Shown: positions 2,536-3,263 of the stretch, in pieces | How positions within the stretch are numbered: position 1 is the first letter of the stretch | Layout of the letters: every line of letters starts with the position of its first letter | From: a virus | Lineage: Duplodnaviria > Heunggongvirae > Uroviricota > Caudoviricetes | IMG/VR virus record: IMGVR_UViG_2563366840_000003 | Length of the DNA: 23,883 nucleotides | Reading direction: 5' to 3' (one strand) | Notes under the pieces: generated by a model | What the model was told of the DNA's origin: nothing | Database searches by the model: none | The model's input: the letters and a program-made list of their open reading frames with translations, nothing else | Translations under genes and position numbers: made by a program

Positions 2536-2947
2536 TTATTAACCTCATTACTGGTTGGGAAATAAGGTTGCGGTGCCGGGTGCTTCCCGGTGTCCTTTAG
2601 CTGGTTATCCACCGTGGACGGGGAAATAAGGAGAAATAATGGACAGATATAACCATTTCCCCGCGTGCGCTTAGCCGCATTCACCGCAACGGAAAGAGCA
2701 TTCCTGGTGGACCTGTAGATTGGGATATGAACCCGTTACAGGAGAATGCTCTTACCTGTTACGTGCTCCGTTTCGTGGAGCTAACGGCGGGTGATCGGGC
2801 CGCACCAGACTGGACTTATTTCAGCGTTATGCTCATGCCAGAGAATCAAACAGTGATGGTCGGTGCTGAACTCCGACACAGGGTTGTAGCAAGCCCCGCA
2901 AAGCGCGCACTACTGTAGTTGCGGCACATCAGCCTGTGCATTCACCA

Positions 2948-3038
2948 CAATGTTGAGAACACTGGTTGTCACGCGGCAACGCAACATTTATTCATAGATT
3001 GGGATATGACCCCGTTACGCCAATGTTCTCAACGTTGT
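2948..3038. repeat. structured element A: 13-14 bp inverted repeat around a ~65-nt interior
   Basis: ACAATGTTGAGAAC (2948-2960) pairs with GTTCTCAACGTTGT (3025-3038); the interior holds the shared motif TAGATTGGGATATGA(A/C)CCCGTTAC, also present at 2716-2739. Confidence 0.5.
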
Positions 3039-3180
3039 AGTGCCGGTTACGGTTCCGGCCAGGCCTCTTCCTCAACGGGGTGTTCTCCATACGGACTACC
3101 GTTTATTGGTCGTTCCTGCGGTTTATGTTGTGAAGCCAGATGCTTATCTTCTGGTTGCTTCTAAGAGCTGCACTTCATCA

Positions 3181-3263
3181 CAACGGTAAGAGCATTTATG
3201 GCTCGCATCGCGGGAAAAAGCCCACGGTAGAGAGTCGAACTCTACAAATGCTCTTACCTGTTG
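3181..3263. repeat. structured element B: ~17-bp inverted repeat enclosing a T-arm-like hairpin
   Basis: CAACGGTAAGAGCATTT (3181-3197) pairs with AAATGCTCTTACCTGTTG (3246-3263); the interior contains GTAGAG-AGTCGAA-CTCTAC, which on the minus strand reads as a T-arm-like stem with loop TTCGACT. It directly abuts the 3' end of tRNA-Thr. Confidence 0.45.

Follow-up and report, generated by a model that had tools for sequence, protein, structure and literature searches.

What occupies the 700-nucleotide (nt) interval that, in the classic model phage P1, is still annotated with two doubtful open reading frames (ORFs), upl and plp? This question was addressed in a stretch of 23,883 nt from a tailed phage (IMG/VR record IMGVR_UViG_2563366840_000003), the whole of which is hereafter called the window. 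By collinearity, the window is a segment of a P1-like phage-plasmid: its positions 2500-3800 share 96.7% identity with positions 68968-70268 of phage P1 (NC_005856), on the opposite strand. The interval holds, instead of protein genes, copies of a conserved structured RNA family that is common to phage-plasmids and prophages, and that is best described as a family of putative tRNA-trailer processing hairpins with tRNA-arm-like tips.

Four related hairpins in the leader of the ban operon

According to the P1 annotation, the interval falls within the C1-controlled ban operon. The P1 record lists on one strand, which corresponds to the minus strand of the window, P1ban with its operator, a "dicF-like region", trnA (Asn), trnT (Thr), tciA, tciB, tciC, trnI, and ban. 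Because the P1ban promoter was placed on the minus strand (Table 1), this is taken as the direction of transcription; the promoter, the tRNAs, the hairpins, and tciABC all lie on the same strand. The hairpins sit in the ~1.5 kb untranslated leader of this C1-controlled early ("ban") operon, in the order Pban, dicF-like segment and terminator, el4, tRNA-Asn, tRNA-Thr, el3, tRNA-Thr remnant, el2, el1, STnc100-like leader, tciABC, and tRNA-Ile2.

Four related hairpins (el1, el2, el3, and el4) are present in this leader, not two. An earlier, sequence-only reading had described two inverted-repeat elements, A and B, between the TerB-like gene (tciA) and tRNA-Thr; both were found where it had placed them and correspond to el2, with arms at 2943-2965/3020-3042 (23 nt, 87% complementary), and el3, with arms at 3185-3197/3246-3258 (13 nt, 100% complementary, and extending to 3179-3266 with one bulged A). 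It had also correctly noted that element B contains a minus-strand hairpin with the loop TTCGACT (GTAGAG-TTCGACT-CTCTAC) and abuts tRNA-Thr: el3 begins one base past the CCA of this tRNA. The short motifs that it had reported in both elements and at 2716-2760 and 3692-3704 were confirmed by shuffle counts, and the latter two sites turned out to be parts of el1 and el4. The 24-mer TAGATTGGGATATGA(A/C)CCCGTTAC occurs in exactly two copies (2716 and 2995), with 0 expected from 100 shuffles, and CTTACCTGTTGTG-like arms occur in four copies (2751, 3253, 3624 on the minus strand, and 3692), with 0.43 expected and none of the 100 shuffles reaching four. The minus-strand folds of all four hairpins have z-scores of -4.7 to -7.0, none of 200 shuffles being equally stable, and the minus-strand fold is the more stable one in every case, the margin over the plus strand being 2 kcal/mol for el3 and 5.5-15 kcal/mol for the others (for el4, -48.8 vs -33.6 kcal/mol).

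Read as minus-strand RNA, every unit starts with CACAAC at its 5' end (GUAAC in el1). The stems of the family comprise 19-25 bp and follow the scheme CACAAC...AAGAGCA / UGCUCUU...GUUGUG around a variable tip. One irregularity, i.e. a bulged A or a C·A mismatch, is found after six pairs from the base; beyond it, the stem continues with (G)GUAAGAGCAUU or GUUGAGAACA, paired with AAUGCUCUUACC or UGUUCUCAAC, and GUUGUG closes the helix. A conserved 3' flank, G(G/A)UGAA(U)GC, follows. A unit is thus composed of the 3' end or remnant of a tRNA, the CACCA of which is paired into the helix, the 19-25 bp stem, an exchangeable tRNA-arm-like tip, and the 3' flank. The 3' arms (3250-3259, 2690-2699, and others, minus strand) contain UGCUCUUA or UGCUCUUU, matching the boxA consensus.

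Selection on pairing in the operon-strand RNA

The region was compared in P1, D6, Ro157c2YLVW, 12 P1-like or SSU5-like plasmids, and others (single sequences are cited below by L numbers). For pair counting, the real arms of 41 distinct family members were joined by an artificial GAAA linker, and the set was split into unbulged (n=21) and bulged (n=17) groups because MAFFT placed no bulge gap. In these counts, which include no phylogenetic correction but draw their variants from paralogues and phage backbones that clearly differ, 95.2 and 97.2% of the cells were paired in the unbulged and bulged groups, and double changes were found in 11 of the 20 and 6 of the 19 pairs, respectively. No value as high was reached in 500 shuffles of either group, and slid controls were only 32-57 and 36-63% paired, respectively. 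Individual cases follow the same pattern. The arms of el3 contain GGGUA/UACCC in P1 vs GAGCA/UGCUC in the window, which represents a double compensatory change (P1 el3 also differs from that of the window in its tip), and the T-arm-like hairpin in the el3 tip is kept in L008 via two compensatory changes (UCAGAG...CUCUGA).

The two strands are not equivalent in this respect. In the transcribed orientation, the 41 arm pairs contain 770 Watson-Crick pairs, 86 G·U pairs, and 12 A·C mismatches, the last of which would be G·U pairs on the opposite strand. Such an asymmetry is unexpected for a DNA palindrome or cruciform and indicates selection at the RNA level. The stem structure is selected in the minus-strand RNA, i.e. 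on the operon strand.

Tips resembling single tRNA arms

The tips of el1 and el2 have the sequence ACGGG(U/G)UCAUAUCCCAAU in common, and the 18-mer ACGGGNUCAUAWCCCAAU was found in at least 120 IMG/VR contigs. The commonest version of the tip, ACGGGCUCAUAACCCAAU, accounts for 95 of the 123 copies among the matches listed. The core of this prophage tip, GGGCUCAUAACCC, is identical to positions 29-41 of metY, which represent the anticodon loop and three G-C pairs of the initiator tRNA of Escherichia coli. The prophage tip crowns a three-way junction on a long stem. Across the 25 prophage sequences, the arms of this stem covary, with double changes in 9 pairs, and a run of 20 contiguous tip positions shows no or almost no variation. 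The tip of el3 carries the T-arm-like hairpin mentioned above, and that of P1 el3 has a canonical AGGGUUCGAAUCCCU arm. Judged from their sequences, the el1 and el2 tips resemble the initiator-tRNA anticodon arm, and the el3 tip resembles a T arm. That an invariant tip reproduces the anticodon loop of the initiator tRNA is a hint that tRNA mimicry may play a part in the conflict between phage and host. In L002, the el1 tip motif has been deleted.

Relation of the hairpins to tRNA genes

As seen for el3, hairpins of the window and its relatives begin 1-2 nt past the CCA of tRNA-Thr, tRNA-Ser, or tRNA-Asn. The second hairpin, el2, is preceded by CCGUAACCGGCACUA, a decayed version of the tRNA-Thr 3' end CCGUUAACCGGCACCA; it was recognised as a tRNA-Thr remnant because the 10-nt repeat GTGCCGGTTA occurs at both 3040 and 3269. 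Relatives have ...CCGGCACCA at this site, an intact tRNA-Thr lies directly 5' of an el2-type hairpin in L008 and L054, and CCGGCAC(A/C), the terminus of tRNA-Thr, precedes many prophage copies.

Residual tRNA identity is found only in the flank and in single arms: CCGTAACCGGCACTA matches the tRNA-Thr 3' end CCGTTAACCGGCACCA, and the tip GGGNUCAUAWCCC matches the metY segment described above. The tRNA covariance model RF00005 (threshold 29 bits), searched against 2500-4100 at E<=10, matched only the two true tRNAs; ARAGORN identified three tRNAs in the window, none within the hairpins, and no tRNA match was obtained in P1 el1-el3 (Rfam, E<=10). The tRNA-likeness is thus real at the level of single arms, and no hairpin is a tRNA or a tRNA pseudogene. 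Since the hairpins are under purifying selection with covariation and also occur in prophage leaders without a nearby tRNA, they are elements of their own rather than decaying genes.

Recombination and distribution of the family

The tRNA content of the island differs among relatives, some of which add an atypical 87-nt tRNA-Ser(UGA), tRNA-Tyr(GUA), or tRNA-Arg(UCU), and the island is therefore a variable tRNA cassette array. The number of hairpins also varies, with the arms kept and with at least six unrelated tips of 30-95 nt. In otherwise collinear plasmids, the varied tips sit directly after the last tRNA of the cluster (tRNA-Thr; tRNA-Asn in L013). BLAST matches among 932 plasmids repeatedly break inside the arms, and an SJ46-type plasmid (L014, 1340-1429) contains a hybrid hairpin, consisting of a 5' half of el2 and a 3' half of el1 joined in the 24-nt tip motif, which is direct evidence that the repeats mediate deletions. 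At the DNA level, the near-identical arms would act as recombination handles by which units are duplicated, tips are swapped, and intervals are deleted, and this explains the mosaic, cassette-like variation of the tRNA islands. As a separate observation, the 87-nt tRNA-Ser(UGA), found in L003 (1638-1724), L004 (1464-1550), and many other relatives, is missing from the Rfam tRNA gathering list and scores 43.5 bits with the tRNA-Sec model (threshold 47); the window contains only spacer at that place.

The family occurs in P1-like and SSU5-like phage-plasmids and in the leaders of lambdoid and CPS-53-like prophages. A pattern scan of IMG/VR, the first pattern of which covered the unbulged arm type only, recovered this combination of arms and flank from 11 prophage contigs, most of which carry no tRNAs, and the 3' arm with its flank has matches in 598 of 5426 complete E. 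coli genomes (~11%), nearly always in chromosomal, unannotated DNA. In annotated examples, CPS-53-like prophages have the hairpins in the interval from the CI-like repressor to yfdP, and lambdoid prophages have them just past a tR'-like terminator, with the Q antiterminator gene on one side and the holin gene on the other. L028 shows the same order as P1, two hairpins being separated by a dicF-like segment. Strain K-12 contains no hairpins: in Qin, the dicF-like and STnc100-like flanks are all that is present, and the region has been lost from CPS-53. When the exact pattern was run against single genomes representing each species, it yielded five loci, three of them in Pantoea, Mixta, and Escherichia sp. 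and the other two in metagenome bins, of which one bears the label Spartobacteria; at the stringency of this exact pattern, the named matches belong to Enterobacterales.

A covariance model built from 25 prophage copies and no P1-type sequence (model R1) finds el1 at 33.6 bits (E ~1e-6), el2 at 23.9 bits (E 7e-4), and el3 at 24.3 bits (E 5e-4, on the palindromic opposite strand), the E-values being rough owing to a short calibration. In Rfam, no family was found for the hairpins, either with the whole window at gathering thresholds or with four sub-regions at E<=10, only chance matches resembling miRNA precursors being obtained. The hairpins are a conserved RNA element family without an Rfam entry.

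Possible roles of the hairpins

The hairpins may mark the sites at which the long operon transcript is cut, in the manner of RNase III, to release the tRNAs; of the explanations considered, we regard this as the likeliest, although it still falls short of an even chance. The proposal is based on the stems, which amount to two helical turns of double-stranded RNA and hence to an RNase III substrate, and on the precedent of the metY hairpin. With 19-25 bp and one bulge or mismatch, the stems attain the approximately two helical turns (~20 bp or more) of an RNase III hairpin, and folding of the metY trailer gives a similar hairpin of ~20 bp. Host RNase III would cut the two-turn double-stranded stems as it does in the hairpin after metY. 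Such a cut would separate the tRNAs from the mRNA that follows, initiate trimming of tRNA-Thr at its 3' end, provide the tciABC message with a 5' end of its own, and release stem-capped small RNAs of 60-100 nt showing the tips. Stable processing by-products like those of the T4 tRNA cluster, one of the origins suggested by the sequence-only reading, would be compatible with this model, which is a concrete and testable one for the processing of phage tRNA islands inside mRNA operons.

Several known systems share parts of this arrangement. The T4 tRNA cluster gives rise to stable small RNAs (species 1 and 2, or bands C and D) and undergoes RNase III processing. Like the hairpins, these are structured non-tRNA RNAs encoded among phage tRNA genes, and they are co-transcribed and processed together with them, as the hairpins would be, but they are not known to be related to the hairpins in sequence, belong to another host-phage group, and lack long perfect hairpins with common arms. 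The RNase III stems of rRNA operons are also long helices that flank structured RNA in an untranslated operon with tRNAs, and have a boxA-like UGCUCUU in one strand; the phage hairpins, in contrast, enclose 30-95 nt and no rRNA, and their boxA-like part is buried in the helix, with no conservation of boxA as such. In the metY-rimP-nusA-infB operon, RNase III cleavage in the metY trailer hairpin sets the tRNA free and resets the mRNA behind it (PMC5371410). The phage leader has a similar layout, with tRNA genes ahead of the mRNA genes of an operon, a presumed common transcript, and a ~20 bp hairpin after the tRNA. The metY hairpin, however, is a single copy with a small loop located ~15 nt past the CCA, whereas in the phage the stem includes the CCA, the arms are conserved and repeated, the tips are large and exchangeable, the unit is present four times, and cleavage is only proposed.

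Single tRNA arms on unrelated scaffolds are known from tRNA-arm mimics in mRNA leaders, such as the thrS operator (tRNA-Thr anticodon arm), and from tRNA-like small RNAs, such as mascRNA and the tRNA-like domains of bacterial Y-RNA/YrlA. No significant match of the hairpins to the Rfam families of tRNA mimics was found, the mascRNA-like match of the P1 el3 tip (14.9 bits, E 4.8) being not significant, and the long phage stem replaces the acceptor stem, whereas in YrlA the anticodon stem is replaced. The prophage small RNAs (sRNAs) DicF, STnc100/PasD, and AgvB/AsxR are similar in their location in leaders 3' of early or late phage promoters and in sharing homologous flanking modules, dicF-like 5' of el4 and STnc100-like 3' of el1. 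They are, however, terminator-ended, Hfq-type sRNAs, and the hairpins have no terminator and no match to those models. The hairpins are not mentioned in papers on this prophage sRNA neighbourhood, including a recent preprint (10.64898/2026.05.13.724894).

Several points weigh against cleavage by RNase III or limit what it accounts for. RNase III has little sequence preference, yet distant phages have kept both the arm sequence (AAGAGCA/UGCUCUU, CACAAC/GUUGUG) and the run of 20 contiguous tip positions; this conservation exceeds what RNase III needs and suggests an additional, sequence-specific partner. The deletion in L002 implies that at least the el1 tip is dispensable. An intrinsic terminator separates Pban from el4: it is strong, is located ~190 nt 3' of Pban, and is preceded by the leader at 3916-4070 (minus strand), so that a short leader RNA is expected and the tRNAs and hairpins would be reached by read-through or from an unmapped promoter. 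In the literature on the P1 ban operon, its tRNAs or hairpins, and the P1 transcriptome, no mapping of RNA ends or RNase III sites in the region was found; a P1vir RNA-seq preprint reports gene-level changes only, and the published RNase III maps of K-12 are not applicable because this strain lacks the hairpins.

Conservation of arms and tips beyond the needs of RNase III, together with the exchange of tips between near-identical phages, fits a role of the tips as decoys or mimics. In such a scheme, the tips would be the functional part, released to titrate a host or plasmid factor, and the stem would be packaging only. The targets would be those of the initiator anticodon arm for el1, el2, and the prophage form and those of the T arm for el3, the factor being, e.g., a VapC-type nuclease cutting tRNA-fMet (a link that reportedly goes back to Winther and Gerdes in 2011), methionyl-tRNA synthetase, or the 30S P site. 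We give this a modest minority chance; it can coexist with RNase III processing. The identity of the prophage tip with metY and the spread of the 18-mer are in its favour, the near-invariant tip positions amid covarying arms point to purifying selection on sequence rather than to a fossil, and tips that differ between near-identical phages are what an arms race predicts. Only three anticodon-stem base pairs are kept, however, 28:42 and 27:43 being mismatched, the P1-type loops are UUCAUAU and GUCAUAU instead of CUCAUAA, and one phage (L002) does without the el1 tip. It is rather doubtful, if conceivable, that the units form a new class of phage small-RNA genes, in which an RNase III-cleavable stem serves as a cassette holder for exchangeable tips, each mimicking a single tRNA arm. 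Similar doubt applies to the proposals, made as parts of the same idea, that released tips are decoys against tRNA-targeting weapons (e.g. of the VapC type) or initiation modulators, shuffled by recombination in the arms, and that they may work beside the variable real tRNAs (Thr, Asn, Ser, Tyr, Arg, and Ile2) of the island. The hairpins might otherwise act on transcription itself, either by folding that blocks Rho loading or by put/nut-like antitermination with a boxA-like UGCUCUU(U)A in the 3' arm. An untranslated RNA of ~1.5 kb would otherwise be prone to Rho termination, and the hairpins always occur in the leaders of operons that have to read through terminators, i.e. after tR' (between Q and holin genes), in the CPS-53-like early-left leader, and after the terminator of the P1 ban leader. 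The el3 and el1 3' arms, UGCUCUUACC and UGCUCUUUCC, also match the boxA consensus YGCUCUU(U)A. Yet NusB/NusE bind boxA as a single strand, and the segment is here tied up in a helix of -36 to -49 kcal/mol; in addition, UACCCUUA (P1 el3) and UGUUCUCA (el2) break the consensus with compensation by the other arm, which argues that pairing rather than boxA is selected. Several copies are moreover located downstream, not upstream, of the nearest terminator. A transcription-level role is considered fairly unlikely.

The remaining explanations would deprive the hairpins of a role of their own or assign it to a sequence within them. That they are non-functional leftovers, i.e. decayed tRNA genes, recombination scars, or a selfish DNA palindrome resembling a miniature inverted-repeat transposable element (MITE), is unlikely, and this view is largely refuted by the covariation and the strand bias. 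Two of these origins had been considered in the sequence-only reading. Decay of tRNA genes is supported by the tRNA-Thr remnant beside el2 and by the single-arm-like tips, but a check with tRNA models of the kind that had been recommended (run with ARAGORN and Infernal/Rfam, E<=10) matched no hairpin, and the compensatory changes that were to be sought in relatives exist and hold pairing at 95-97%. Recombination is upheld as history, in the duplication of the tRNA-Thr end with its hairpin, in tip swapping, and in the el2/el1 fusion, and leaves the conservation unexplained. Copy number and content vary among relatives, and the same arms occur in unrelated phage backbones, as expected of leftovers, whereas the excess of G·U over A·C on the transcribed strand is unlike a DNA palindrome and the tip motif is invariant across diverged arms. 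A further proposal, that the arms act on the host sRNA GcvB, either the CA-rich 5' arm (CACAACA) or the GU-rich 3' arm serving as an AgvB-like sponge or imitating the R1 seed, appears very unlikely. CACAACA is the GcvB R1 target consensus and is used by the prophage anti-sRNA AgvB, which is located in the same prophage neighbourhood, 3' of PR' (PMC4104026). The 5' side of el3, CAACACAACA (3257-3269, minus strand), is perfectly complementary to GcvB R1, and its 3' arm with flank, CUUACCGUUGUGAUGAAGUG (3172-3196, minus strand), matches GcvB nt 58-77 at 17 of 20 positions. Both arms, however, are paired together in a very stable helix, CA-rich matches to the low-complexity, GU-rich R1 are easily found, and the matches are shorter in other family members. 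The view that the interval is protein-coding on the plus strand, the repeats being incidental, can be given hardly any weight. In the P1 RefSeq record, two ORFs are placed between trnT and tciA, namely upl (63 aa) and plp (125 aa, a putative lipoprotein), and the upl ORF is intact in the window. On the other hand, plp starts with TTG, overlaps tRNA-Thr, and has in-frame stops in the window, L015, L002, and L006; the upl start is missing in L002, L004, and L008, and no coding sequence covers the interval in the PLSDB gene tables of the plasmid relatives, which are incomplete. What is annotated as the upl ATG is the anticodon-like CAU of the el1 tip loop read from the other strand, which is why the annotation is corrected here, and both upl and plp are regarded as probable annotation artefacts.

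Some further element types were compared with the hairpins and rejected. In place of the single-stranded boxA and small boxB of a boxA/nut-type site, the 8-mer in el1 and el3 is buried in the helix, and it is replaced elsewhere. A likeness to the core of the P1 C1 operator (ATTGCTCTAAT vs the arm ATGCTCTTAC) was dismissed because the family also occurs in phages without C1. The flanks, CCA(A/G) and G(G/A)TGAATGC, show no target-site duplication, and the interiors are unrelated between copies, unlike those of MITE families. Compared with an integron attC site, the base ACACAAC...GTTGTG(A/G) breaks RYYYAAC...GTTRRRY at one position per box; among the ORFs of positions 1-6500, the part of the window that was checked, there is no integron integrase, the Cin/Pin-type invertase (842-1426) being the only recombinase found.

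Other features of the region

Features of the hairpin region and its surroundings are summarised in Table 1.

Table 1. Hairpins, tRNA genes, and other features located in the window
Feature	Position	Strand	Evidence and remarks
el1; same arms and same tip motif as el2	2685-2763	-	z -5.0; model R1 match
el1 tip motif ACGGGUUCAUAUCCCAAU	2719-2736	-	
el2 (element A of the earlier reading); 22 bp stem, conserved C·A mismatch, three-way tip	2943-3042	-	z -4.7; covariation; model R1 match
el2 tip motif ACGGGGUCAUAUCCCAAU, initiator-tRNA anticodon-arm-like	2998..3015	-	
el3 (element B of the earlier reading); 19 bp stem, one bulged A	3179-3266	-	z -7.0; model R1 match
el3 inner T-arm-like hairpin GUAGAG-UUCGACU-CUCUAC	3227..3245	-	read from sequence
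el4; ~25 bp G·U-rich stem, upstream of tRNA-Asn	3616-3711	-	inverted repeat; z -5.8; arms CACAACAGGTAAGGGCG / CGTCCTTTCCTGTTG match family
Decayed tRNA-Thr 3' end, GCCGGAACCGTAACCGGCACTA (core CCGTAACCGGCACTA, 3038-3052)	3038..3059	-	just upstream of el2
tRNA-Thr (UGU)	3267..3342	-	ARAGORN; Rfam 74.9 bits; 3' CACCA pairs into el3 base (fold of 3170-3268)
tRNA-Asn (GUU)	3345..3420	-	ARAGORN; Rfam tRNA 74.5 bits
tRNA-Met/Ile2(CAU)	1760-1835	-	ARAGORN and Rfam
P1ban promoter and C1 operator ATTGCTCTAATAAATAT	4072..4101	-	placed by collinearity with P1 annotation
Intrinsic terminator (GCCCAUCUUCGGGUGGGC and U7)	3885..3915	-	after dicF-like leader segment, 5' of el4
STnc100-like leader of tciA, starting with the conserved el1 3' flank GGUGAAUGCGG	2569..2688	-	Rfam RF02076 33.4 bits, model positions 31-147
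tciA (TerB-like), first protein gene 3' of the hairpins	2110..2535	-	ORF; P1 annotation
upl equivalent	2727-2918	+	P1-annotated ORF
plp equivalent	2919-3164	+	P1-annotated ORF
Cin/Pin-type DNA invertase	842-1426	+	ORF, beyond end of P1 collinearity
HK97-like tail-fibre assembly gene	281-796	-	beyond end of P1 collinearity

The P1 leader has dicF-like and STnc100-like modules in common with the dicB operon of K-12 Qin. Qin homologues exist both for the segment before the terminator, which corresponds to the region upstream of dicF, and for the tciA leader, which corresponds to the dicB leader; D6 has a homologous leader in front of its own tciA. STnc100 has been described as a PasD-related sRNA of prophages (preprint 10.64898/2026.05.13.724894). 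The score of the tciA leader with RF02076 is below the gathering threshold of 47 bits, and the match covers the leader 3' of el1, not the hairpins. A simple promoter scan found nothing and also missed the known P1ban promoter.

Collinearity with P1 ends at about position 1500, just before the expected start of ban, and genes for an invertase and for tail-fibre assembly are found there instead, indicating that the "ban operon" of the window has lost ban. The leader 3' of tRNA-Ile2 (~1640-1757, minus strand), UUGGUUGUAACACGGCGUCUGGCACAUGCGUCGUUAGCGGUCUGG...CCAGGUAGCCGGAAUGUGCAAGUCA, is near-identical to L027 3265-3390, the early-left leader of a CPS-53-like prophage, and is, on this likeness, probably another non-coding module in common with such a prophage. 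Rfam matches in the remainder of the window include the sok antitoxin RNA (19418-19592, minus strand) and the C4 antisense RNA with its a1/b1 target (22906-22991 and 23060-23112, respectively, both minus strand), as expected for the immunity and maintenance region of a P1-type element.

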